Of a DNA stretch of 64,000 bases, positions 2,480-61,032 are shown piece by piece. The notes under the pieces are model-generated. The model ran no database searches, was not told where the DNA came from, and worked only from the letters and a program-made list of their open reading frames with translations. The translations under genes and the position numbers were made by a program. Within the stretch, counting starts at the first letter, position 1; the number at the start of each line of letters is the position of its first letter. Origin of the DNA: Candidatus Bathyarchaeota archaeon (lineage in GTDB: Archaea > Thermoproteota > Bathyarchaeia > TCS64); contig JAOZHO010000017.1 of assembly GCA_026014875.1 (NCBI GenBank), positions 11,611 to 75,610 on the forward strand, in the 5' to 3' direction.

Positions 2480-2941
2480 GTCGTCGACGTCGGCATCATC
2501 GTCCCCACGTGCTTCGAGAACCCCCTCAAGGAGCACAGCACGGCGTTCCTCGCGGACGTCCTCACCCAGAGGAAGAAGGCCGCCATACCCGTCACAGCGA
2601 TCATCGGAGCCTACCACGTCGCCACCCGATACCTGCGGATCCCCAGGATGACGGTGAAGAAGACCCTGGGCGGCATCCTGAACACGGGCTCACCCGCCCT
2701 CTACGGCCACGTCTCACCCCAGACGGCCTGGGACGCCCTCGACTACGCCTCCACGTACCTCATCGAGTCGTGGGACGGATACCTCATCTCCCTGGCCCGA
2801 AGCCTCAGGTCGACCGTCGTCTTCTCCCTCGACGAGGAGCTCCGCAAGGTCAGAGAGATAACCCTCGTGAACCCGTTCCCCAGAGAAGACGTCGAGCGGT
2901 ACCACGACTCCCTGAAAAAAGGATTAAGACAACATCCCTAG
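2480..2941 (+). CDS. PIN-domain ribonuclease toxin (VapC-like), GTG start
   Basis: The 2354..2941 frame begins inside the antitoxin in another frame, so it was trimmed to GTG at 2480/2483 (VVDVGIIVP...). Acidic positions fit a PIN fold: N-terminal D, E in CFENP, D in DALDY, and C-terminal VVFSLDEEL (the PIN 'TxDxDF' equivalent). Confidence 0.55.
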   Translation, partial: VVDVGIIVPTCFENPLKEHSTAFLADVLTQRKKAAIPVTAIIGAYHVATRYLRIPRMTVKKTLGGILNTGSPALYGHVSPQTAWDALDYASTYLIESWDGYLISLARSLRSTVVFSLDEELRKVREITLVNPFPREDVERYHDSLKKGLRQHP

Positions 2942-2983
2942 ATCATGCGTCCAACCCCGGGTCAACCAAGGGTGGACGACGCA

Positions 2984-3021
2984 GGACCCCTCCGACGCGA
3001 GACCGAATCTCCCCCGATCTA
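2984..3021 (+). repeat. tRNA 3'-end fragment copy 4 (most diverged), att-like direct repeat
   Basis: ggacccctccgacgcgagaccgaatctcccccgatcta aligns to copy 1 with substitutions and one indel. Confidence 0.5.
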
Positions 3022-3168
3022 TCAATCCTCATCTGCCATGATATCCCGGGTCTTCACTCAATCACGCGCGAGGTCCCCCGTGGCCTCTATGCGCCAGCCC
3101 CGTCAAGGATGTCCCCCCGCATGGGAATGTTTATCTACCATTTTACCATAACTCAAACCAGTGGTATT

Positions 3169-3438
3169 ATGGCATCATTGGTGGAGTCGGACGGGTCAGG
3201 CCGGATAGTGATACCCAAGAGGATACGGGACGAGCACGGAATCACGGGCAGGACCCAGTTCCTCCTCACCAGCAACGGGAAGGGCCAGATCACACTCCAG
3301 AAGATAGACGTCGAGGAGATGGCCCAACGCCTCCAGGAGGAGCTCAGAGACGTCCCCGTCGAGGAGATGGCCAAGTCCATCAGGAAGGAGATAAATGACA
3401 AAATCAGATCAAGGCGCCGGGACCTTCCTCCTCGATAA
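3169..3438 (+). CDS. AbrB/SpoVT-type antitoxin (VapB-like)
   Basis: MASLVESDGSGRIVIPKRIRDEHGI... matches the AbrB swapped-hairpin motif. The long 2509..3438 frame spans att copy 4 and is a GC-frame artifact. The gene overlaps the downstream PIN gene by 44 nt. Confidence 0.65.
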   Translation: MASLVESDGSGRIVIPKRIRDEHGITGRTQFLLTSNGKGQITLQKIDVEEMAQRLQEELRDVPVEEMAKSIRKEINDKIRSRRRDLPPR

Positions 3439-3835
3439 CAACGTCTTCGTCTCCGCCATCAAGGACCCCGCCAGGGAGACGGCCACCCTCACGCTCATCC
3501 TGGAGATGATCCGGGACAAGAGCGTGGGCCTGGTGGGCAACGAGTTCCTGGCGGAGGAGATGGCCCGATACGCCGAGGCCTTCAGGTCGGAGACCGCCTC
3601 CCTCCTCCTCCACGCCCTCATCTCCAAGATGGACATCGTGGACGTCCAGGAGAGATTCACCGCCGCCTGCAGGAGCATCATGGGCACGGAGGACCCCGCC
3701 GACCTCCTCCACGCCGCCACCTGCCTCCAGACGGGCGCCACACTCATCACCAACGACCGCCACTTCAACAGCATAAGAGACCAGGGGATCATCGAGGTCT
3801 GGAGCACGGCAGAGGCCATCCGGAGGCTCCTCTGA
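3395..3835 (+). CDS. vapC: PIN-domain toxin VapC
   Basis: Classic PIN motifs FLLDNNVFVSA (N-terminal D) ... E ... D ... TLITNDRHF, 146 aa. Confidence 0.8.
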   Translation: MTKSDQGAGTFLLDNNVFVSAIKDPARETATLTLILEMIRDKSVGLVGNEFLAEEMARYAEAFRSETASLLLHALISKMDIVDVQERFTAACRSIMGTEDPADLLHAATCLQTGATLITNDRHFNSIRDQGIIEVWSTAEAIRRLL

Positions 3836-3891
3836 GCATCTCGCACCACGGACGTCCCTCCCCGGCCGCCCCACCGAACAGCCCCCCCTGG

Positions 3892-4452
3892 CTATTCACG
3901 CAGTGACTCGGCGAACCTGTGCGCGAAATCCCTTATCCTGTCCCAGTCCCTTAGATCGTTCCTGCCCTTCGCGTCGAGCTCCAGCCCCTTCTCCTTGGAC
4001 AGCCCCAGCATCACCGACTGAGCGATCTTCTTATCCAGGAACCCCATCCGGGACCCCGGCCCCACGTCCAACACCGGACCGAAGGCCTCCATCAGATCCG
4101 CCTCCACCCCCGCCGCCTCGGCCACCTTCTCAAGGAGATCCCTCCGGGCGTTCTCCGGCTCTACCAGCACCGACATGCAGGAGACGAACAGCGCCACCCT
4201 CCTCCCCCTGAGCTCGCCGGCCTTCCTCCTGAGGAACGCCAGGGGCTCCCCCATCCACTTGGATATCTTGACCCCGGAGCCCACCATCACACCGTCGTAC
4301 CCCTCCAGGCTAGGCCAGAGCCTGATCCTCTTGACATCCAGAACGGTGGCCTCCACCCCCTCCTCCCCCAGGAACCCCGCCAGCCTCTCCGCGATCTCCT
4401 CGGCGCTCCCCCACCGCGAGCCATAGGCGATCAGAACCCTCATGATCGACAC
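3892..4452 (-). CDS. flavodoxin-like fold protein
   Basis: MRVLIAYGSRWGSAEEIAERLAG... is a typical flavodoxin phosphate-binding N-terminus. Confidence 0.55.
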   Translation of the reverse strand: MSIMRVLIAYGSRWGSAEEIAERLAGFLGEEGVEATVLDVKRIRLWPSLEGYDGVMVGSGVKISKWMGEPLAFLRRKAGELRGRRVALFVSCMSVLVEPENARRDLLEKVAEAAGVEADLMEAFGPVLDVGPGSRMGFLDKKIAQSVMLGLSKEKGLELDAKGRNDLRDWDRIRDFAHRFAESLRE

Positions 4453-6034: not shown

Positions 6035-6333
6035 TTCTCCCTGTTCTTCAGGCCCCGGATCACCCCCTCCACCACGTTGTAGACGGCCTTCAGGGACCAT
6101 CTATCGGGGTCGCCGCCTGCTGGGTAGGAGGCCACGCCGAAGGCTGCGGCGCCTCTGGTCGGCGACGATGTCGCAGGTCATTCTCGGCACGTGCGTTCAG
6201 CCGCACAGGGCATGAGGCCTAAGGGAGATCAGGACTCTCCGTTGTTGGATGATAATCGTTTTTATTAGAGTCTAGGTTAGACTATCCATTCATTGCTTAA
6301 GAGGGAGAACTGTGAGAAAAGGGAGACTGCAGT

Positions 6334-6498
6334 ATGGCTAAGGAAAAAGTTAGATACCCATGCAAATGCAACAAGACCGACCCCGAGCACACCAAAGAAG
6401 ACAGCGGGGAAGGCTGGATGCGATACGTCTGCTCCTCATGTGGCAAAGTCAAGTTCGCGTGGCGCGCTCACGGAGCCAAGAACTTGGACGAGAAGTGA
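6334..6498 (+). CDS. small CxC...CxxC zinc-ribbon protein (54 aa), unlisted because <60 aa
   Basis: ATG at 6334, TGA at 6496. The protein reads MAKEKVRYPCKCNKTDPEHTKEDSGEGWMRYVCSSCGKVKFAWRAHGAKNLDEK. It has 4 Cys in a ribbon arrangement and lies 60 bp upstream of tbp. Confidence 0.35.
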   Translation: MAKEKVRYPCKCNKTDPEHTKEDSGEGWMRYVCSSCGKVKFAWRAHGAKNLDEK

Positions 6499-6557
6499 CA
6501 GCAGTCAATATACCTGACCAGGATATTACCAAGTTTGGTTGAACGCGGGGAAACTGT

Positions 6558-10901: not shown

Positions 10902-12143
10902 CTATAATTTGCGGAGTTTGGGCACAATTAAAACCAGTATAACGAAGATGATTACCATAATTGCTCCATAGATACTCTGGGCAAGCGGCGCTCCAAGTGT
11001 TTCAGCTATGGCTCCCAGTGCCACGCTCCCCAGTACGCCAAATCCGATGCTTAGCTGCCATATGCCCATGGCACGGCCCCGCTGCTCTTCGGTAACGTTG
11101 AGTTGGAACAGGATGTGTTGCATGGCGTCGTGTCCCGCCGCTGTTATTCCAACTATGCCTATGAAGAATAGTGAGAGAGGATACGATGATGAGTTGGCGA
11201 ACAGAATCAGTGAAACACCGAATGCGAGGAAGAGGCCGAGTTGTATCCGTCCCTTGTACTCGTAGTCTCCGAGAGAGGCAAGAGTCAGTCCCGCTATTAG
11301 GCCGCCTACCGAGCGTACGGTGCTGAACATGCCGAGGCCGACGGCGCCTACGCCCAGGATGTCCCGGGCAAAGACGGGTAGGAGTGCTGAATAGGAGAAG
11401 CCGAACATCTCACAGGTGGCTGCCATCACCATCAAGGCGAGGATGACCCTGTTGTTCAGGACGATCTGTATTCCCTCAACAAGGTCGCTCCAGAGCGATT
11501 GCGTTTTAGTGATCGCTCTTTCTTCAATCCCCCGGATGTAAGCTGTTATTCCAATTGCCAGGATGTTAGCCGCGGTTATCACGAAGAAAGGCCACTCCAT
11601 ACCAAACAAATGGATTATAATTCCGGCGACGGCACCACCGATGATGCCGATGCCTCGCAATCCAACCGCGTTAAGAGAGATACCGCTCATGGCGCCCTCA
11701 CGGCCGACGATATCCACAATGAAAGCCTGGCGTGCGGGGCCTTCGAAGGCACGGATGGAACCCCAGACAAATGTGATCAGGAGGACATGCCAAAGTTGAA
11801 TCCAGCCTCGCAGGACCAGGTAACCCAATAGAAAACCACAGGCGGAATACAAGGCCAAGGCTACTATCTGTAACTTTTTCCGATCAACCCTGTCGGCTAC
11901 AGCTCCTGCCAACATTCCCAAGATTAGATTTGGTGCCGAGCGTGTTGCCCACACTAGGCCCAGGGATAAGGGGGAATCAGTTAGTTCCAAGACCAACCAT
12001 CCTGAAGACACCATCATCATGATGTTTCCAAGGGACACAGTAATCGTAGTCAAAAAAAAGAGACCAAAATTCCGAGACTTGAAAGGTTGAAAAATCCGTA
12101 TATTGGCGATGCCAGAAAATAGATCAGTCACTTTATTTGCCAC
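10902..12143 (-). CDS. MFS transporter
   Basis: 413 aa with 12 predicted hydrophobic segments and a MFS-like loop 2-3 motif (G..ADRVDRKK). Confidence 0.85.
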   Translation of the reverse strand: MANKVTDLFSGIANIRIFQPFKSRNFGLFFLTTITVSLGNIMMMVSSGWLVLELTDSPLSLGLVWATRSAPNLILGMLAGAVADRVDRKKLQIVALALYSACGFLLGYLVLRGWIQLWHVLLITFVWGSIRAFEGPARQAFIVDIVGREGAMSGISLNAVGLRGIGIIGGAVAGIIIHLFGMEWPFFVITAANILAIGITAYIRGIEERAITKTQSLWSDLVEGIQIVLNNRVILALMVMAATCEMFGFSYSALLPVFARDILGVGAVGLGMFSTVRSVGGLIAGLTLASLGDYEYKGRIQLGLFLAFGVSLILFANSSSYPLSLFFIGIVGITAAGHDAMQHILFQLNVTEEQRGRAMGIWQLSIGFGVLGSVALGAIAETLGAPLAQSIYGAIMVIIFVILVLIVPKLRKL

Positions 12144-30126: not shown

Positions 30127-30253
30127 GGGGATGACCTAGTTCCCTTTTTTTGAGCAGTATTCAGATCACCCACTCGCTTGAAAAAGAGAAAAAAACATCA
30201 GAAAACTCGATTCGACTATAAACTCCTGGCCGCCTCTCGGCGTCTGAGCTTAT

Positions 30254-30433
30254 CTAGAACCTTCTTGGCGGCCTGTGCTTAGCAAAGCACTCACGGCAGT
30301 AAACCGGCCTGCCCTCTGTCGGCTTGAAGGGGACCTCGGCCTCCTTCCCGCAATCAGAGCAGATGATCTTGGTCATCTCACGCGGGCCACGGTCGTATCC
30401 ACCGCGCCTATCTCTATAACCCAATACTTTCAC
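30254..30433 (-). CDS. small CxxC-x17-CxxC zinc-ribbon protein, copy A (59 aa, GTG start; core MTKIICSDCGKEAEVPFKPTEGRPVYCRECFAKHRPPRRF)
   Basis: Hand translation of the minus strand. Paralog of 30752..30934 and not in the ORF track because it is 59 aa. Confidence 0.6.
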   Translation of the reverse strand: MKVLGYRDRRGGYDRGPREMTKIICSDCGKEAEVPFKPTEGRPVYCRECFAKHRPPRRF

Positions 30434-30751
30434 TCCTATTCTGTGTGTATGCTCAGAACGCCTCTCGGTATTCGCCGCACACTGGGCACGCAGGGGTATT
30501 TCTCCCTTTTAAACCATTTTACGCAAAGCCAACCATAAACAACCTAAACCAGAGTCGTGCGCGATGAGGGCGGTTTTATTCAGTCTGAAGAGCTTCGTCG
30601 GATATGCGAAATGGTTGAGAAAGTCTCAGTGACCAGATTACCTGTTTCGGGTCATCCTTCAGAACCCTCACTAGCTTGGAAAAAAAGAAAAAACAATAGA
30701 AAACTCGATTCGACTATAAACTCCTGGCCGCCTCTCGGCGTCTGAGCTTAT

Positions 30752-38435: not shown

Positions 38436-38993
38436 ATGAATTTCGACGAAATAATCAAGGAGATGGAGGCCTTCCAGAGAAAGGTAATGGGATCCATGCT
38501 CGACGACTTCGGAGACTCCGGACGGTTCAAGCCTTTCGGTGGCTTCGAGGGCATCGACGAGAGGTTCAAGGAGCTCGAGAATGGGGGCCGGTCCGGGATG
38601 CCCCAGGGTGAGTGGCGCTTCGAGCGCATCGACCGCCCCGGGGTCAAGGGGTTCATAGCCAGAGGCATGTTCACCCACCCCGACGTGCTAAAGAAGCCCG
38701 ACGAGATCCTGCCCCCCCTCAGGCCTGAGCCGGGGAGGCCCAGAAGGCCCCTCTACGACATCCAAGCCGAGGAGGGGCGGCTCAGGATCTACATCGAGCT
38801 CCCGGGCGTCGACGAGGATGCCATAAGCCTCGAGGTCATGGACGGGATGCTGAGGCTCCATGCCGGGGACTTTGAGGAGGAGATCGACCTCAACCGCTGG
38901 ATCGTCGACCCCGACAAGATGGCCACCCAGTATGGCAACGGGGTCCTAGAGGTCACCATCCCCAAGGAAGACCTCGAAGAGCAGAGGGTCTAA
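38436..38993 (+). CDS. hsp20: small heat-shock protein, Hsp20/alpha-crystallin family
   Basis: Alpha-crystallin domain PLYDIQAEEGRLRIYIELPGVDEDAISLEV...GVLEVTIPK. Confidence 0.85.
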   Translation: MNFDEIIKEMEAFQRKVMGSMLDDFGDSGRFKPFGGFEGIDERFKELENGGRSGMPQGEWRFERIDRPGVKGFIARGMFTHPDVLKKPDEILPPLRPEPGRPRRPLYDIQAEEGRLRIYIELPGVDEDAISLEVMDGMLRLHAGDFEEEIDLNRWIVDPDKMATQYGNGVLEVTIPKEDLEEQRV

Positions 38994-39613
38994 CCCCCAT
39001 CCATTTTTTGCAGCCTTTTTTCCGCTTCAACGATCACTTCCGCTGTGTCCACGTCGAACAGCGTGAGAAGCTCCGGGTCCCTCTCCCTCAGGGAATCAAT
39101 GGGGATATGCTTCACATCCGGGAGCCTCCTCAGGATCATCCGCAGCCTCATATTTTTCTCCTCGAAAAGCTCCCCGGCAATTCTCAGCGAAGGCTCCACG
39201 CGATAGACAGAGAAGAAAGGCTCAATCCACCCGTTCGGCCACTCGAATGTGGCACCGTCGTGGCCCTCGGCCTCGGCGAAGAGCCACCGGACGACGTCAG
39301 GGACGACGAAGGGCATATCGCATGCGGTGATCAATGCGTATTCCCCGCGAGCCCTCTGGAGACCCGTGATGGCGCCCACCAGGGGTGAGCCGTCCCCGTA
39401 TACGTCGATGAGAATCTCGGCACGATCCCCCAACACGTCGGAGTATTTCCCATGCTGTTCCACAGAGCCCACGACTATGAGCACCTCATCAACGACAGCG
39501 GAGACCCCATTCAAAATATGGCAGACCATGGGCTCATCGGCGAGGTCCAGTAACCCCTTGTCCCTCTTCATCCGGGTCGAGTCCCCCCCGGCGAGGACGA
39601 TAGCGGTTCGCAT
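38990..39613 (-). CDS. mobA: molybdenum cofactor guanylyltransferase MobA
   Basis: AIVLAGGDSTRMKRDKGLL...ITACDMPFV is the MobA nucleotide-binding signature. Confidence 0.85.
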   Translation of the reverse strand: MRTAIVLAGGDSTRMKRDKGLLDLADEPMVCHILNGVSAVVDEVLIVVGSVEQHGKYSDVLGDRAEILIDVYGDGSPLVGAITGLQRARGEYALITACDMPFVVPDVVRWLFAEAEGHDGATFEWPNGWIEPFFSVYRVEPSLRIAGELFEEKNMRLRMILRRLPDVKHIPIDSLRERDPELLTLFDVDTAEVIVEAEKRLQKMDGG

Positions 39614-40133
39614 GCTTGGAATCTACTTTCTCTATGTTTACTAGATTAAAGTACTCCTGTTGGTGGGCATCTGTATCCTATGCTCGTACATGGACTCAGG
39701 CTCGCTGAAACGTAAGATACGGTTTTTTCCCATTTTATTGCGTTTTCAAGCGTTCCCGCCCTGTTTAGGCTCCTTTCACTATCGGTTTCCGATACATTGC
39801 CCGTAATAATCGTTTTATTAACGGAAATTAGGGATGAGACCGAGCATATCGTTCACATGGAAAGGGGTGCGTCGGATGTCGAACATGCCTACCTGGTTCC
39901 TGAAGATATACGTGTTATTCGGATCTTCCTTATTGTTCTGGATTTTAGGCGGCAAAGCATGGTTCATGAGAGAACGAACCTGATGGAAGGATATGCTCAC
40001 CCCCTTTTTTTGGGGGATAGGATCTCGTTAATCGAGCCGTTCCCAGCTCCCGTTTGAGAGAACTCGATGATAAAGTGAACAATTCTGTTAATATAAGATA
40101 ATTTATACGCTTACCCTCCCTAGATAATCCATT

Positions 40134-41021
40134 ATGGCGAAGGGGCTGCCGAGCTACGAGGAGGTCGTGGAGGCCTCCCTCGAGGTCTTCGAGCAGTACG
40201 ACACCGCCCTCACCCTCCGCCAGCTCTACTACCGCCTCGTCTCGAGACACCTCTTCCCCAACACCATCAACAGCTACAAGCGCCTCAGCCGCCTCATGGT
40301 GAAGGCGAGAGAGCGGAGGGATGTCCCGGTGAACTGCCTCGAGGACCGGAGCCGCCGCATCCTGGGGAGGGGGGACGCTGGATTCACCTCGGCCGAGGAG
40401 TTCCTGAAGAAGCGGATCGCGAGCCTCAGGGAGAGCTACAAGGAGTTCAGGCTGCCCATGTGGGTGGATCAGCCCAACTACATCCTGGTGAGCCTGGAGA
40501 AGGACGCCCTGAGCCGCCTCGTGGGCGACATCGCGAACCAGTACTCTGTGCGCACCTTCCCCACCCGGGGCTACCCCAGCTTCACCTACGTCCAGAGGAT
40601 GGCCTCCTACATGAGGAACCGCCTCAGCGGGAAGCCCACCGTGGTCCTCTACTTCGGAGACTTTGACCCCAGCGGCGTAGACATCGAGAGGGACCTCAGC
40701 GAGAGGCTGGGCAAATACGATGCGGGGGACTTCACAGTCGTGAGGGTCGCCCTCACCGACGAGCAGATCACCAAGTACAACCTCCCCCCGATGCCTGTGA
40801 AGACCAGCGACGCCCGATCCGAGGCCTTCCTGGAGGCCTACGGGAACAAGTCGGTGGAGCTAGACGCCCTCGACCCGAATACGCTCAAACTCATGGTGGC
40901 CCAGAGCATCTCCTCCCACATCAACCTCGACGCTTGGAAGAAGAAAGAGGCGGAGATCGAGAAGCTCAAACTCTGGATCAAGCAAAAGCTCGAGAACATG
41001 GAGAACCTTGTCACCGAGTAA
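40134..41021 (+). CDS. Topo VI-A / Spo11-like core protein (5Y-CAP plus Toprim), stand-alone, no adjacent Top6B
   Basis: TLRQLYY (R29, Y32/33) matches the Spo11 KRDI(F/Y)Y catalytic-Tyr motif. YILVSLEKDAL (E122) and LYFGDFDPSGVDI (D176, D178) are the Toprim E and DxD. Spacings Y->E 89, E->DxD 54 and DxD->C-terminus 117 match M. jannaschii Top6A (94/52/118). The protein lacks the roughly 70-aa N-terminal region of canonical Top6A. Confidence 0.7.
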   Translation: MAKGLPSYEEVVEASLEVFEQYDTALTLRQLYYRLVSRHLFPNTINSYKRLSRLMVKARERRDVPVNCLEDRSRRILGRGDAGFTSAEEFLKKRIASLRESYKEFRLPMWVDQPNYILVSLEKDALSRLVGDIANQYSVRTFPTRGYPSFTYVQRMASYMRNRLSGKPTVVLYFGDFDPSGVDIERDLSERLGKYDAGDFTVVRVALTDEQITKYNLPPMPVKTSDARSEAFLEAYGNKSVELDALDPNTLKLMVAQSISSHINLDAWKKKEAEIEKLKLWIKQKLENMENLVTE

Positions 41022-41059: not shown

Positions 41060-41536
41060 TTAATTTGTGATGCTTGAGAAACGAGGATTATCCAGCAATC
41101 CCCTGATCGCCTCGTCGCTGTAGCTGAGGAGCTTCCCCAGCCCCCAGGCGAGCTCCAACTCCACCTCCTCGGTGAGAGCGCCCTCCTCAAGGCTGCGTTT
41201 CCTCAACTCCTTCAACCGCCTGTACTCGTCGAGGGTCGCCCGCTCAGCCGCTATGTGGATCACCCGTTTCCCCCGGGTGTACTCTGGGTTGAAGAGCTGG
41301 GTGACTAAAAAGTCGTCGTCGATATCCAGGATTAGCCCGTACTCCTCGGCGATCAGTCTCACATCATCCCAGATGGCGTCGAACTGCTCCACCGTGAGGG
41401 TGGGGCTCAGGGCCAGCCTCTTGCAGCCGGAGCCCACGATCTCAGCGAAGGCGTAGATCATCCCCAGCTGGTACGACCTCTGGTCTAAGACGCTAGAGTC
41501 GAATCTCCTTTTCTCGGATCTATCGACCATTTTCAT
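41060..41536 (-). CDS. hypothetical protein
   Basis: 158-aa ORF convergent with the Top6A-like gene. No recognised family. Confidence 0.4.
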   Translation of the reverse strand: MKMVDRSEKRRFDSSVLDQRSYQLGMIYAFAEIVGSGCKRLALSPTLTVEQFDAIWDDVRLIAEEYGLILDIDDDFLVTQLFNPEYTRGKRVIHIAAERATLDEYRRLKELRKRSLEEGALTEEVELELAWGLGKLLSYSDEAIRGLLDNPRFSSITN

Positions 41537-44104: not shown

Positions 44105-44612
44105 AGGCTTTACATGATAATAACATTGACGTTAGACTTCGTGATGCGTGGGCCCAGGATGCTAGGAGAAAAGAGGCGGAGAGGTCCAAGGCATGTCAGG
44201 TGCCCTGACATTTAGCTCAGGGACCGCTCCTGTGCGATTTATCGTCAGACGTCTCTTAAGGTTTATGGATTATTTACACATGAATTGAAAGTACACTCCG
44301 GTTTGAACTGGGCGGTTCTCCAAGCATTCCTTTACCGACCCGACCATAGGCCATAGACCCTTCTTTTAAGCGACCTAGTTTCATCCATCTCCCTCCTCCT
44401 GATAGCTGGGTTCCGTTTATATCGTGCCCCGGCTCCTCGCGTGATGGAAGCCATGGGTGAGTCCAGGAATCTCCTTGAGTGGGTGAAGAAGAACAGGCCC
44501 AGAGACCTCAGAGCCAACCGGATTAGAGTCTCCGAGAAGCCTCGTAGGCGCAGGCTGGCTATCAGCTGAATCATGGCTTTTAGGGATAATATTATTCGTG
44601 CTTGACAGAGTC

Positions 44613-45137: not shown

Positions 45138-45637
45138 ATCGAATCATCTTGGAGTTCGGAGTTATTGAACTAACCTGCCTGTGATGCCTCAATGGACCCC
45201 CCTCATTCACTTTCATAAGAGTCCTCAGCCAAGCACGGGGAACTCAGTCAGATGCGGTTTGGTGCATCCATATGGGATGAAAAACGGTGCGTATGGTGTC
45301 AATGAAGATTATTCTCATAAAAATATCTGAGAAAGGTGATGATCAAATATCTCGATGGGTTATGTGACACTCATGTCGAAGGGAGAACGTACACAAGAGC
45401 AAAAAAAGCCGCTACCCCCAAGTATGGTTGAACAACTCTTCAATTTTTAATGATGTAAACGTCAAGCCCGTTGAAACGTGATTGAAAAAAGAGAAGAAAA
45501 ATTTGTAACCCCCGTTTAATGACCCTTCTCTCCGCGAACAGCCAATTTCCGTTATACATATTGAAGTTATATGGCAAATCCTAGCCCCCAGAACCACCCT
45601 TAGTTTTAAATATGAATAAAGAAAGAATAAGATCACC

Positions 45638-45997: not shown

Positions 45998-46083
45998 TGG
46001 CGCCGCGGAAGGGATTCGAACCCTTGAGGCACAAAGGCCACTGGTTTTCGAGACCAGCACGATAACCACTCTGTCACCACGGC
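45998..46083 (-). tRNA. tRNA-Ser (anticodon CGA), long variable arm, CCA encoded
   Basis: Minus-strand reading GCCGTGG...CTGGT-CTCGAAA-ACCAG...variable arm...AGGGTTCGAATCCCTT-CCGCGGC-G-CCA. The acceptor pairs 7/7 with one G·U. The 86-nt length fits class II tRNA. Confidence 0.8.
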
Positions 46084-56197: not shown

Positions 56198-56830
56198 CTA
56201 GGGGAGCTTGTCCATTGACTCGACGAGAGTGCTCCCTGTGAAGGCTAGGTCGAGGGCCTTCTTCCCGGCGCTCTCCCCTTCCCCGTTGTCGAGTCTGTGG
56301 ATCTTTATCTGATTGAATATCCTCCTGAGCTGTATCCTCGTGTTCGAGGGGTCCGTGCCGAAACCGAAATAGTCCGCGAAGAACGGCGTGGTCTCGATCA
56401 CATACGCCCTGTTCTCGTTTCTCTCCCGGGTGATGAGGCCCATGTCCTCCATCCTCTTCAAGTGGGAATAGATGTGGTTCCCCCTATACTCCACGACCTG
56501 AGACTGGAGTACGGGCTGATGGTAGGCGACGTAGGACAGGGTCTTCAGGGGACCCATCGTGAGGAGGGGCCTCGTTGTGAACCTCTTCACCGACTGATCG
56601 TACCTCTGATTGAGCCTCATGACGGCCCGGTTCCCCGGCAGGACCTTTACCTCCAGGGCGCTCCTCCGCGCTTCGTATCGTAGAGAGAGCTCCCGGATCA
56701 GCCGGGCGATCACCTTGTCGGATTTCGTTCTGACTACTACCTTCATGCTCTCCATGTTCACCGGGCGCCCGGCGGCGTAGAGGGCCGCCTCAAGCATCGC
56801 CAGGCGCTTATTGTTCTGTTGGTTGCTCAT
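56198..56830 (-). CDS. scpB: segregation and condensation protein B (ScpB)
   Basis: Tandem winged-helix organisation. Overlaps scpA by 23 nt downstream of smc. Confidence 0.75.
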   Translation of the reverse strand: MSNQQNNKRLAMLEAALYAAGRPVNMESMKVVVRTKSDKVIARLIRELSLRYEARRSALEVKVLPGNRAVMRLNQRYDQSVKRFTTRPLLTMGPLKTLSYVAYHQPVLQSQVVEYRGNHIYSHLKRMEDMGLITRERNENRAYVIETTPFFADYFGFGTDPSNTRIQLRRIFNQIKIHRLDNGEGESAGKKALDLAFTGSTLVESMDKLP

Positions 56831-57482
56831 CTTCGTTCAACTCTCTGACGTTGACCCGTATGTCGGTCTCTTCCTCGTCCTGGTAGAGGTCCACCTTGAG
56901 CCCTTGGGCCAAGAACAGCAGCATCATGAATACCCGGACCACCTCTATGGGGGTCCAGTCCTCGACGAGGTCGTAGATGCTGAAGGGTCCTCCCCCCATC
57001 TCCACTAGGCGCTCATAGAGCCCCTCCGCCCGTTCCTCCACCTCGAGGAGGTACTGCTCCACGTCGAGGAAGTCGGGTATCTGAACCGGGAGCACGGGGA
57101 CCCGGGGGAGGGTTGACCTCCTCTCCTCCGTGAGGGCCTTCTCCAGGGCCGTGATGAGGTCTGTGACACTCGTCGTCGTGAACTCGAACCTGAACGGGAG
57201 ATTCAGGGCGGGCGGAACGTAGATGTCGGGCCTCGCAATCTGCTGCTTCCTGGGCTCCTCCATCTTGAGGAGAAGCTCAGCCTTCTTCTGGTAGATGATC
57301 ACCGAGGAGTTGATGGCCGTCCCCGCGATCCTGAAGTCGATGCCGACCTTGTTCATCTCCTCCAGGAGGGTGGTGAGGATGTACACCAGATCGATGCTCC
57401 AGGGGCTGGTCCTCCCCAGCTTCCTGTCCTTGAAGAGGATCTCCCAGGGCTCCCGGAGGTAGTAAGGCTTCTTCCTAGGCAC
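56808..57482 (-). CDS. scpA: segregation and condensation protein A (ScpA kleisin)
   Basis: 224-aa kleisin-like protein immediately downstream of smc. Confidence 0.75.
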   Translation of the reverse strand: MPRKKPYYLREPWEILFKDRKLGRTSPWSIDLVYILTTLLEEMNKVGIDFRIAGTAINSSVIIYQKKAELLLKMEEPRKQQIARPDIYVPPALNLPFRFEFTTTSVTDLITALEKALTEERRSTLPRVPVLPVQIPDFLDVEQYLLEVEERAEGLYERLVEMGGGPFSIYDLVEDWTPIEVVRVFMMLLFLAQGLKVDLYQDEEETDIRVNVRELNEDEQPTEQ

Positions 57483-57483
57483 C

Positions 57484-60400
57484 TTACAGCGGCACCTCCA
57501 CCTTCATCGGCAGCGACACGACCCGGCTCCGCCCCTGCTGGGCGAAGACCCCGTAGATCTTGTCAGCGTTATGGACCATGATGTCCTTGAGGCTCACCAT
57601 GAGGAACTGAGCGTCCATCGCGTTCTCCTTCAGTACGTCCGCCAGCCTCGCAGTGTTCAGGTCGTCGAGGTGGGCGTCTATCTCGTCGAAGAGGTAGAAC
57701 GGGGCCTTCAGGAATCTCTGGATCGCGAGGAGGTAGGCTATCGCGGCCACCGATCTCTCTCCGCCGCTGGCTCCCGCGGCGAGCCTCATGGGCTTGCCGG
57801 GGAACTGGACGTATAGGTCGACGCCCCCGGAGAATGGGCTCTCGGGGTTCTGGAGTTCTAGGCGTCCGTCGCCTCCACCTGTGAGCTTCTCGAAGAGGAC
57901 CGAGAAGTTCTCGCAGATATCGTTGTAGGCCGCCATGAATTGCTCGGTCTTCTCCCTCTCCACCTCTTCGATGAACCTCAGGATGGAGCCCTTCTCCTCC
58001 TCGAGCTCGTTGATCCTGACGCTGAGCATCTTGTAGTTGTAGGCGTCCTCCTCGTAGGCTTGGATTGCGAGCTGGTTCACCATCCCGAGGCTACGCTTCT
58101 CCCGCCCGATCCTCTGGAGGGTCCTCTCCACATGGGCGAGGTTGACCCCCTCAGTCTGGAGTATATCCTCGAAGCCCAGCCTCGCCAGATCCTCGAAGCG
58201 CTGCTCGCTCTGGAGCCGAAGCTTCTCGAGCTCGACGTCGAAGGACATCGTCCTCCTCTCGACGTTCACCCTCCTCTGGCCGAGCCTCTCAATATTTCGT
58301 TCGATCCCATTGACGACTCTCCTGTGCTGCTCAAGGATCTTGCCCGTCGCCTCCACCTCGGAGGTTATGCCGTTGAGGACCCCCCGGAGCACCTCTATCT
58401 CCGAGCCCCCCTCGGCGAGCCTCGTAGAGGTCTCCTTCATGTTCTCCTCATAGACCTTGATCTCTCCCTTCCAGCCCTCGATCTGGTCCTTGATGTCCGA
58501 GGTCTTCAGGTTGAGGAATCCGTCGATGTGGTTAGTCTGAATCGAGATTTCGGTCTGGATCTGAGACCTCTCTTTCCGGAGTTCGGCGGTCTCCCTGACT
58601 CGAGTATCATAAGACATCTCGAGCTTGACGACCTCGGATGGTTTCCCTAGACCCCTGAGTTGGGAGATCTCCTTCTTCGCCCTCTCGATCTCATGGAGGG
58701 TCCTCGCCTTCCTCTCCTCGAGGACGACGACCAGGCTTAGCTCCCTCGCCTTATCCTCGATGAGCTTGCCGATGTTCCCGTCGATGGTGGCGATGTTCTT
58801 CTTGTACCTCTCGATCGTCTCCACGGTGTCCCGGATCTGCCGGTCGATTCCGTCTATATTCTTGTTGAAATGGTCGATGTAGCCGGTGAACTCCCTGAGG
58901 CTCCCACCCGACTTTTTGAGATCCGTCATCTTCGAGGAGAGGCTCTTCCTCAAGGCCTTGATAGTCGTGGAGAGACTGTTGATGGATTCCTCGCTGGGGA
59001 TGAGCTTGGTGAGATCCGGGGGGCGCCTCCAGTGCCCTCCCAGTATCCCCCCCTTGGGCTCGAAGAGGTCCCCTGCTAGGGTCACGGATCGATATCCCTT
59101 GCTTGCCAGGGAGATCGCCGATTTCCTGTCCTTAACGACATAGGTGTCTCCCCAGACAAGGTAGACGGCGGTGCGGTACTCCTCGTCGAATCTGATGAGC
59201 TCGGGCATATAGCCCTCTACTCCCGATTCATTGATCTCTGGGAGTGGCCCTGGGGCCTTTATGTCTTTCAGGGGTATGAATCGGGTCATCCCGAGCCTGT
59301 TCTTCTTGAGGCTCTCGATGCACCGGAACGCCGTATCCACGTCGGCGACAACCAAAGCGGTGCTCCAGCCGCTGGCGGCCGTGTTCGCCGCCTTCTGATA
59401 TTTGAGGTCGATCTTCACCAAGGACCTGAGCTGTCCATGATACCCCTGCAGGGCTCCCGCCTCCGCCATCTCGAGGATCCGAGCCTGGGCCTTCTCCTCG
59501 GTGACGATGTTCCCCCAGAGGTCCCTCTTCGCTGCGAACTGGGTTATGGTGAGCTCGGCTTCCTTGGCGAGCTTGTTGGCTCCCAAGATGGTGTCCCGAA
59601 TACCCTTCTGTCGCCCCACCTGACCCTCGATGTTCCCGAGCATCTTCTCGAGCTTCTCGGACTCATCGACCTTGAGGGCCTCGTACTCCCCTATCTTCTC
59701 CCCCAACTTCGACGTGGAGGCGAGAGTGTCCCTCTTCTTCCTCTCCAAGTCGTCGACTCTGCCCTGGATGGTGGCGGAGGTGACGTTCTGCTTGTTGATC
59801 TCGATCTCGAGGCCGCTGAGGCTCTCCTGCATCGGTACGAGGTCCTCGGTGAGCTGCTCGATCCTCTTGAGATTATATTCAGCGAGCTCCTTCTGGGTCT
59901 CGATCTCAGCGGCCTGGTTCTTGAGGCTCTCCTCCTTCTTTCCGATTCTGACGTCGATCCGTTTAGACTTCCTCGTCAGCTCCCGGAGGGTCTTCTGCTT
60001 CTCTCTCTTCTCGACCTTTGATCTCCCGATCTCTTCGAGCTTCGCCTCGATGTTCCTCTGGGTAGCGAGCTTTCTGGATTCGAGTTCCCTCAGACGGTTC
60101 TCGAGGCCTCTCCTCACGGTCTGTTTCTCGACGAGCTCCGACTTCAGGATCGGTAGTCTAGTGTTGCCCTTCTCGGAGGCCTCGTTGGTGAACTCCTCGA
60201 GGCGCTCCCTCGCCTCCTCCCGCTCCGCGAGGAGCTTCTCCCTCTCCTCGACGATCCGCTCGATCTCTGCGCCGCTCTCCGCGATCTTTTTCTTCGTCTC
60301 CCCGATGTTTGATTCGATCCTGTTGATCTGCTCTGAGAGCCGGTAGGCCTCGAGGCGCTTCTCCTCCCGCTCCAAGAGGCGGGACCGGATCGCATCGTTC

Positions 60401-61032
60401 CTCTCACGCTCGAGCCCCATCACTCTGCGACGGACCTCATCCCCCTTCGCCGAGGCGACCTCGATCTTCCGCTCAGCATCATTGAGTCTGACCTGGGCCT
60501 CAGCCTTCTTCTCGTCGTACTCGGTGATCCCGACGAGATCCTCGAGGGCGTTCATCCTCTCCGGAGGTGTCAAGTCGCTGAGGCGGGTGGCGAATCCCTG
60601 GAGGACCATGTTGTAACCCCCGGGGCTGATCCCTGCCATCATGAGGAGCTCGAGGAGGGCCCGCCTCGACGTCTGCTTCCCGTTGAGGAAGTACTTGCTC
60701 TTGCCATCCCGGTCCACTCTCCTCCCGACGCTCACAGTCTTCCGGTCGACAGGGAGAGCCCTGTCGGTGTTGTTGAAATATATGGTGACCTGGGCGTAAT
60801 GGGGCTTCGCCCCGTCATCCCCCGCTCCGTCAAAAATCAAGCCCGACAGGTCGGGAACCCTCATGCGCTTGGATCCCAGCTCCCCGACGACGAACTGGAT
60901 AGCATCGATGATGTTGCTCTTCCCGCTGCCGTTGGGCCCAGTAATGACATTGAATCCCTGCTGGAAGCTGAGCTTCAAGCTTCCGCTGAAGGACTTGAAG
61001 TTCCGGAACATAATCCTGCTGATATACACCAT
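57484..61032 (-). CDS. smc: chromosome segregation protein SMC
   Basis: 1182 aa with N-terminal FKSF + Walker A GPNGSGKSN, long coiled coils, hinge, and C-terminal signature LSGGE... + Walker B DEIDAHLD. Confidence 0.95.
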   Translation of the reverse strand: MVYISRIMFRNFKSFSGSLKLSFQQGFNVITGPNGSGKSNIIDAIQFVVGELGSKRMRVPDLSGLIFDGAGDDGAKPHYAQVTIYFNNTDRALPVDRKTVSVGRRVDRDGKSKYFLNGKQTSRRALLELLMMAGISPGGYNMVLQGFATRLSDLTPPERMNALEDLVGITEYDEKKAEAQVRLNDAERKIEVASAKGDEVRRRVMGLERERNDAIRSRLLEREEKRLEAYRLSEQINRIESNIGETKKKIAESGAEIERIVEEREKLLAEREEARERLEEFTNEASEKGNTRLPILKSELVEKQTVRRGLENRLRELESRKLATQRNIEAKLEEIGRSKVEKREKQKTLRELTRKSKRIDVRIGKKEESLKNQAAEIETQKELAEYNLKRIEQLTEDLVPMQESLSGLEIEINKQNVTSATIQGRVDDLERKKRDTLASTSKLGEKIGEYEALKVDESEKLEKMLGNIEGQVGRQKGIRDTILGANKLAKEAELTITQFAAKRDLWGNIVTEEKAQARILEMAEAGALQGYHGQLRSLVKIDLKYQKAANTAASGWSTALVVADVDTAFRCIESLKKNRLGMTRFIPLKDIKAPGPLPEINESGVEGYMPELIRFDEEYRTAVYLVWGDTYVVKDRKSAISLASKGYRSVTLAGDLFEPKGGILGGHWRRPPDLTKLIPSEESINSLSTTIKALRKSLSSKMTDLKKSGGSLREFTGYIDHFNKNIDGIDRQIRDTVETIERYKKNIATIDGNIGKLIEDKARELSLVVVLEERKARTLHEIERAKKEISQLRGLGKPSEVVKLEMSYDTRVRETAELRKERSQIQTEISIQTNHIDGFLNLKTSDIKDQIEGWKGEIKVYEENMKETSTRLAEGGSEIEVLRGVLNGITSEVEATGKILEQHRRVVNGIERNIERLGQRRVNVERRTMSFDVELEKLRLQSEQRFEDLARLGFEDILQTEGVNLAHVERTLQRIGREKRSLGMVNQLAIQAYEEDAYNYKMLSVRINELEEEKGSILRFIEEVEREKTEQFMAAYNDICENFSVLFEKLTGGGDGRLELQNPESPFSGGVDLYVQFPGKPMRLAAGASGGERSVAAIAYLLAIQRFLKAPFYLFDEIDAHLDDLNTARLADVLKENAMDAQFLMVSLKDIMVHNADKIYGVFAQQGRSRVVSLPMKVEVPL

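Follow-up and report, generated by a model that had tools for sequence, protein, structure and literature searches.

A Topo mini-A gene on a Bathyarchaeia chromosome

The window analysed here, a 64-kb stretch of Candidatus Bathyarchaeota archaeon DNA, carries on its forward strand a gene for a 295-residue protein that, judged by its sequence, clearly belongs to the Topo mini-A family published by Takahashi et al. (2019/2020, NAR Genom Bioinform; PMC7671362). The product is identical to MCW3988896.1 (NWE88_02335; exact-sequence match), annotated as 'hypothetical protein' in a Candidatus Bathyarchaeota archaeon metagenome-assembled genome (MAG). A preliminary description of the locus had placed an open reading frame (ORF) of this length here and read it as a stand-alone Top6A/Spo11-like 'mini-A' protein with R29, Y32/Y33, E122 and D176-x-D178 as catalytic residues. 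ORF and residues are where it put them (codons were checked), and the reading held under profile, fold and context comparison; what it missed is the published name of the family and the chromosomal, vertical inheritance of the gene in Bathyarchaeia. The gene and its parts are the following:

40134..41021, + strand: Topo mini-A gene (295 aa plus stop; from the ORF list)
40134..40448, + strand: truncated 5Y-CAP / winged-helix part (about residues 1-105, boundary approximate)
40218-40220, + strand: R29
40227-40229, + strand: Y32
40230-40232, + strand: Y33, predicted catalytic tyrosine
40467..40808, + strand: Toprim domain (about residues 112-225, boundary approximate)
40497-40502, + strand: E122-K123 in the Toprim domain, predicted metal-binding
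40659-40676, + strand: D176-F-D178-P-S-G181 in the Toprim domain, predicted metal-binding
40851..40871, + strand: T2BI box S240-V-E242-L-D-A-L246, the mini-A signature xWELDAL with V replacing W
40926..41018, + strand: C-terminal 30-residue helix (residues 265-294; H265-294 in the AlphaFold2 model)

The catalytic residues lie in the segments LTLRQLYYRLV (R29, Y32, Y33), VSLEKDAL (E122) and YFGDFDPSG (D176, D178), the first of which contains, as R29-Q-L-Y32-Y33, the RxxY/FY motif that was defined for mini-A together with the T2BI signature xWELDAL (PMC7671362). The T2BI box of the window protein, SVELDAL, matches this literal signature at 6/7 positions, and V and W alternate there family-wide (x[W/V]ELDA[L/I]), also among members in viral contexts. 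In a family alignment of 90 sequences, which are 28-81% identical to the window protein, R29, Y33, E122, K123, D176, D178, G181 and E242 are invariant, and L243, D244 and A245 of the T2BI box are at least 90% conserved. The same catalytic residues are invariant within the Bathyarchaeia clade in a close-set alignment, as is W268 in the C-terminal helix, for which we can only guess at a role in dimerisation or partner binding.

The ratio of nonsynonymous to synonymous substitution rates (dN/dS) between the mini-A gene and its orthologues is 0.08-0.30, similar to that of neighbouring genes, and the gene is under purifying selection across Bathyarchaeia. Both this and the invariant residues, in the 90 sequences as well as in the Bathyarchaeia clade, speak against a catalytically dead protein with a structural or regulatory role, in whose favour we can cite only that no mini-A protein has yet been shown to be active. 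We regard such a protein as extremely improbable; the regulatory subunit that the preliminary description had listed among its functional options is likewise unlikely, because every catalytic residue is invariant.

Relationship to the mini-A family and to Top6A

Residues 12-290 of the protein match PHROG 6247 ('DNA topoisomerase') with an E-value of 5.9e-68. Phage mini-A proteins are 35-38% identical to it overall (E 1e-37 to 1e-42), among them those of Listeria phage LWP01 (36.9%, E 1e-37) and of the Pseudomonas phages PaMx25 and JG054 (38%, E ~1e-41); the LWP01 and PaMx25 proteins carry the T2BI box SWELDAL. The family is large, with 5447 homologues in a 90%-clustered collection and 7381 clusters at 50% identity, mostly of 280-320 aa, and plasmids of Streptomyces and Natrinema carry homologues too. 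One homologue of 674 aa (P0196; here and below, P numbers denote homologous proteins and L numbers the loci of relatives) is split by an intein with Hint and LAGLIDADG domains.

General domain collections are less informative. The protein has no match to Pfam TP6A_N (PF04406) or the TOP6A-Spo11 Toprim family (PF21180) at gathering score, its only Pfam matches being DUF2399 (E 0.018) and a spurious LINES_C; it has no match in NCBIfam, and a PDB search with the single sequence gave no significant match to Top6A. The mini-A identity was settled by PHROGs, a family profile and a fold search only. The AlphaFold model used in the fold search (pLDDT 89.5; helices H8-20, H28-37, H45-60 and H265-294) matches Top6A, MksG and Spo11; a fold search of BFVD gave nothing informative. 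The family profile aligns the DxD region to DGDPYG of Methanocaldococcus jannaschii Top6A 1D3Y (E 0.006) and, not significantly, 'tlRqiYY' to 'STLREAYY' (R99, Y103) of the same protein. The motif alignment proposed earlier thus survives profile-based comparison, and the 1D3Y numbering likewise supports the claim that about 70 N-terminal residues of canonical Top6A are absent.

The preliminary description had also considered a genuine Top6A with an unlinked top6B, that is, the A subunit of a housekeeping Topo VI with the Top6B gene at another genomic location. In its favour, the protein has the fold and the catalytic residues of Top6A, and its gene is chromosomal, conserved and, as far as the loci seen show, present once. 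However, the missing N-terminal residues belong to the part of 5Y-CAP through which Top6A binds Top6B in Topo VI (PMC7671362), neither Pfam model is matched at threshold, and the protein groups with the mini-A proteins of phages and mobile genetic elements (MGEs). Moreover, in archaea top6A is described as always lying next to top6B (PMC7671362), and a canonical Topo VI is listed for one Bathyarchaeota MAG (PMC11302465 Suppl. Table 1). A housekeeping Top6A is accordingly disfavoured, and we consider it very improbable.

The absence of an adjacent B subunit, noted before, is borne out by the annotation of the neighbouring genes and by tblastn searches with the GHKL/transducer N-termini of fused relatives, which, within their limited sensitivity, found no GHKL/B-like gene in the 64-kb window or in related loci. 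No second A-like gene was found in the window. The fused relatives are proteins of about 720 aa (P0170, P0226, P0344-P0354; L024/L025 7001-9169) in which a GHKL (HATPase_c) and transducer-like N-terminus is joined to a mini-A-type C-terminus. Their motifs are RQxFY and xWELDAL, the latter being the box of mini-A rather than of Topo VIII. They share 39-42% identity with the window protein and form their own clade with 100% bootstrap inside the mini-A family. In the one context examined the gene lies beside a DDE transposase and a phage integrase, and the named members come from Nitrososphaerota MAGs. Some mini-A-type modules are therefore paired with a B-like partner, to which they are fused. 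A search for a separate 'Mini-B' with the GHKL N-terminus of these proteins returned 14 proteins, two of them organism-named (both Nitrososphaerota) and none labelled Bathyarchaeota.

Conserved genomic setting

Upstream, the mini-A gene is divergent from a gene for a MobA-like NTP transferase (38990-39613, - strand); downstream, it is convergent with a gene for a 158-aa hypothetical protein without a Pfam family (41060-41536, - strand). Neither is a topoisomerase subunit, in agreement with the earlier view that the flanking genes are unrelated to it. Genes for RimK, a cyclophilin-like protein, rpS25e, ArsR, HSP20, MobA, an M28 peptidase, an Asp/Glu racemase and a CxxCxxCC protein surround mini-A, and RACo, a dehalogenase-like protein and SMC/ScpAB are encoded farther off in the window.

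Much of this order is retained among relatives. Loci whose mini-A proteins are 92-98% identical to the window protein (L021, L004, L020) have the order ArsR-HSP20-MobA-spacer-mini-A; those at 86% identity (L012-L017, a TARA sample included) have RimK-cyclophilin-S25e-ArsR-HSP20-mini-A, and a closed 1.5-Mb chromosome at 76% identity (L005) has ArsR-HSP20-MobA-mini-A-M28-racemase. At 67-72% identity (L006, L008, L009), the CxxCxxCC gene is still found 3-4 kb downstream of mini-A, and the deeper contexts contain other housekeeping genes (eIF2a, rpL44e, GINS, PriS/PriL, DHDPS, GMP synthase and archease). The gene is single-copy in the loci seen. A genome-collection scan with the single protein gave only eight close loci, a number that is no measure of taxonomic spread. 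Codon usage is host-like as well: GC content at third codon positions (GC3) is 0.92 for mini-A and 0.75-0.92 for real genes of the window, and that of the orthologues tracks their own genomes from 0.51 to 0.93.

These observations bear on the possibility that the gene is cargo of an integrated provirus or another mobile element. Published mini-A genes are viral, proviral or located on MGEs (PMC7671362), the two nearest non-Bathyarchaeia relatives that were examined lie on virus-like contigs, and an AT-richer spacer adjoins the gene. Against this stand the housekeeping flanks, whose order is conserved over 67-98% protein identity; the lack of any integrase or viral gene seen within +/-8-10 kb of mini-A in nine independent contexts; codon usage that follows each host; and a conserved promoter (see below). 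Although encoded by a virus, provirus or MGE elsewhere in the family, mini-A thus sits in conserved housekeeping synteny here, and the cargo explanation is largely refuted and very doubtful.

Also on offer is a stand-alone or trans-acting defence nuclease that cuts invading DNA, like MksG/JetD of Wadjet. PADLOC matches to JetD are marginal (E 3e-4 to 8e-3) and confined to the Toprim region. No JetABC or MksBEF genes are adjacent, the sole SMC gene of the window is linked to ScpA/ScpB and 16 kb away, and conserved housekeeping synteny with low dN/dS is not what a variable defence island looks like. Furthermore, Y33 is invariant, and JetD/MksG are not known to have the conserved catalytic tyrosine. 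We find a defence role quite unlikely. The region at 56198-61032 (- strand), in which the SMC gene (Pfam SMC_N plus hinge) is followed by genes that resemble ScpA and ScpB by eye only, is unlinked to mini-A in other lineages.

A partner role for the 158-aa convergent neighbour was rejected, because the two genes are next to each other only in the lineages of the window/L004 and of L001, and the L012 lineage, among others, lacks the neighbour. Its counterpart beside mini-A in L001, the closed genome CP070784.1, is 62% identical to it; its single-sequence AlphaFold model has an unusably low pLDDT of 49. In L004 a 486-aa gene (2818-4278), an S8 subtilisin-type peptidase by eye only, lies between the mini-A and 158-aa genes, which shows local gene turnover at this junction. 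Elsewhere in the window, ORFs at 1-2150 and 10902-12143 have a GC3 of 0.28-0.57 versus 0.75-0.92 in the rest; two of them have no family, one encodes a SAM methyltransferase and one is MFS-transporter-like by eye only. These regions may be recently acquired DNA.

Phylogeny and viral relatives

The Bathyarchaeia mini-A sequences form a clade with 100% neighbour-joining (NJ) bootstrap, set apart by a gap in identity: at least 62% for the clade, at most 49% for everything else. The nearest outside relatives are 43-49% identical, and both of the two examined are on virus-like contigs, one directly after a tape-measure protein gene and the other together with genes for a UvsX/RadA-like recombinase, a DNA methyltransferase and an HNH protein. 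A RadA/UvsX-like gene lies near mini-A in L018. In phage PaMx25 the order is ATP-dependent ligase, small hypothetical protein, mini-A and Sak4-like single-strand annealing protein, with a Cas4 exonuclease and a helicase farther on; in LWP01, mini-A is an early-region gene located upstream of that for the DNA polymerase. The gene context of the relatives points to replication and recombination.

A further reading takes up the proposal, made for skuldvirus mini-A (10.1101/2021.07.29.453957) and repeated in a 2026 preprint, that the protein is a replication initiator, here a site-specific nicking enzyme for rolling-circle or origin nicking of a chromosomal or episomal replicon. Consistent with it, phage homologues are found in replication modules, and PriS, PriL and GINS are encoded 4-7 kb from mini-A in one lineage. 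However, other lineages do not share the link to the primase genes, neither origin-like repeats nor an Orc1/Cdc6 gene was noticed beside mini-A, and a chromosome of 1.5-2.3 Mb is unlikely to need an initiator of viral type. We judge a nicking initiator to be distinctly improbable.

A conserved promoter in place of a long leader

The spacer between the MobA-like gene and mini-A measures 520 bp and has a GC content of 45-47%, as compared to 59% for the window. The preliminary description had drawn attention to this long, AT-richer region, treating about 490 bp of it as a non-coding leader of mini-A that might hold regulatory or noncoding RNA elements. Its length and lower GC content stand, but the leader does not. 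The following features lie directly upstream of the start codon:

40075..40133, + strand: mini-A core promoter (TATA box and inverted repeat)
40078-40089: inverted repeat AACA-N4-TGTT, just upstream of the TATA box
40102-40107, + strand: TATA box TTTATA, centred 29.5 nt before the ATG

TTATAC is found at the same distance in L001, L004-L010, L012, L020 and L021, and every Bathyarchaeia orthologue examined has the TATA box at this place, while the spacer is 523, 398, 265, 78 or 44-92 bp long in other lineages. Because the TATA box keeps its position some 30 nt ahead of the ATG and the spacer varies in length, the spacer is not a 5' untranslated region of mini-A. With the usual archaeal distance from TATA box to transcription start site (TSS), the sequence predicts a TSS 2-4 nt before the ATG and a near-leaderless mRNA. 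The inverted repeat, kept in the window, L004, L020 and L021 and mostly in L012, though not in L001 and L005, may be a binding site for a putative regulator. The MobA gene has its own TATA-like box near its start. Long gaps recur in the window, five others being at least 500 bp (the median gap is 73 bp); four measure 500-625 bp (44105-44612, 45138-45637, 6035-6557 and 30127-30751), and two of these are near tRNA-Ser(CGA) (45998-46083, - strand).

A conserved core inside the spacer

Within the spacer, a segment of about 250 nt that is not part of the predicted mini-A transcript stands out by its conservation:

39734-39740: TATA-like TTTTATT, before the core
39761..40010, + strand: conserved core of the MobA/mini-A spacer (about 250 nt)
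39834-39983, + strand: 49-aa ORF; its hydrophobic stretch could be membrane-spanning
39991-40007: CCCCC-T7-GGGGG, after the 49-aa ORF

The core is 96% identical to that of L004, compared with 83-86% for the spacer flanks and 92-95% for coding regions. It is absent in the L012, L005 and L001 lineages and has no paralogue in the window. An exact-24-mer metagenome scan added just two further copies, each in a syntenic position, so the core is not a repeat and its copies are too few for covariation analysis. The 49-aa ORF is intact in 4/4 sequences, with substitutions by codon position of 1/2/6, and a 60-aa ORF on the opposite strand is also intact (3/4/7); an 86-aa ORF (39797-40057) was rejected, having stop codons in relatives. 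No exact match to the 49-aa peptide was found in the protein collection.

As for the regulatory or RNA elements suggested earlier, a promoter and a separate conserved core are indeed present, but an Rfam match and unusual folding are not: Rfam gave no match in the spacer, either with the whole window at gathering scores or permissively on 39500-40250, and minimum free energy folding of the core is no better than that of shuffled sequences on either strand. A terminator scan likewise had no match in the spacer. From its sequence, the core is possibly a small protein gene, namely the 49-aa ORF, or a small RNA, the substitutions being too few to decide between the two.

Proposed history and mechanism

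Taken together, the gene is probably a single-copy, monocistronic chromosomal mini-A, vertically inherited in Bathyarchaeia after domestication of a viral capture, transcribed into a near-leaderless mRNA and encoding a Top6A-like, ATP-independent DNA break enzyme. We base the domestication of a viral gene on the conserved synteny, the host-like codons, the low dN/dS, the fully supported clade and the relatives on virus-like contigs; capture from an archaeal virus is its most likely history.

By analogy with Topo VI structures, the protein would form a Top6A-like homodimer via the T2BI box. Arg29 would position Tyr33, and each Tyr33 would attack a DNA phosphodiester beside the Mg2+ site (E122, D176, D178) of the partner subunit, so that protein and DNA become joined by a 5'-phosphotyrosyl link. 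The lack of a GHKL gate excludes ATP-driven strand passage. The most economical reading is an ATP-independent enzyme of cleavage and religation, or one that makes breaks, which may serve transactions of the replication or recombination type, the setting in which the genes of its viral relatives are found. The best reading among the three functional options of the preliminary description is correspondingly a DNA-cleaving module working without a GHKL ATPase.

Several points weigh against this picture. The specific sister grouping of the Bathyarchaeia clade has an NJ bootstrap of only 1%, and therefore the direction of transfer, from virus to cell or from cell to virus, is not proven. Reviews up to late 2024 and the 2026 preprint treat the function of mini-A as unknown or hypothetical. 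The homodimer and the active sites formed in trans are transferred from Topo VI by analogy, while similarity to Top6A is weak, with the significant part of the 1D3Y alignment limited to the Toprim domain and the Pfam Top6A models below threshold. Furthermore, mini-A has no conserved operon partner that points to a pathway, the TSS is a prediction from sequence, and the spread within Bathyarchaeia is seen only through the examined loci.

A bolder proposal would have the protein, a type IIB cleavage enzyme without B subunit and ATP dependence, make programmed, protein-linked breaks in the cell's own chromosome, as a core cellular enzyme derived from a viral mini-A and either a prokaryotic functional analogue of Spo11 or an ATP-independent topoisomerase. 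We regard this as unlikely.

Significance

Mini-A has been described as a third type IIB topoisomerase subfamily, exclusive to viruses and mobile elements. The family itself is thus already published, and what is new here is the setting: a conserved, vertically inherited chromosomal mini-A in Bathyarchaeia. The original description includes three archaeal sequences (PMC7671362), and in the mini-A literature consulted, which describes it from viruses, proviruses and MGEs only, we found no mention of a chromosomal Bathyarchaeia clade. A chromosomally fixed clade under purifying selection and with its own predicted promoter suggests that a stand-alone A module can serve the cell, and it offers a second, independent setting for asking what such a module does. 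It also bears on the published debate over whether a lone A protein was the ancestor of Topo VI, Topo VIII and Spo11. The practical value is limited, since Bathyarchaeia are uncultured and the function of mini-A is still hypothetical.

Comparison with named systems

Spo11 (8URU) is a eukaryotic protein that retains the N-terminal part and has Top6BL among its partners; nothing points to a specific relationship with the window protein. Identity as Topo VIII was ruled out. These plasmid-borne B-A fusions or split enzymes have a GHKL/transducer part, which the window protein lacks, as well as a T2BI box of the form RVELNAM where the window protein has VELDAL, and an Arg at +3 after the catalytic Tyr that is not found in the window protein (YYRLVSR). 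MksG/JetD, the Toprim nuclease of Wadjet/MksBEFG (8B7F), differs in its SMC-type partners, none of which is adjacent to the window gene, in the marginal sequence match, and in relation to the catalytic tyrosine that is invariant in the family of the window protein.

Top6A proper (M. jannaschii 1D3Y, S. shibatae 2ZBK, M. mazei 2Q2E, 9O0G) is disfavoured on account of the Pfam models, the N-terminal truncation in the B-binding part and the grouping with mini-A. Structural alignments show an identity of only 12-18% with the window protein, the T2BI boxes differ, and top6B is not adjacent to the window gene.

The closest system is Topo mini-A itself (LWP01; PaMx25, JG054, NP1; PHROG 6247), with which the window protein shares direct sequence homology, a length of about 300 aa, a 5Y-CAP truncated to its C-terminal half and followed by a Toprim domain without a B module, and the motifs RxxY/FY, E, DxDxxG and the T2BI box x[W/V]ELDAL. 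It differs from the published signature in having V in place of W, and from the published genes in being chromosomal, syntenic and vertically inherited, with the codon usage of its host and a conserved promoter of its own.

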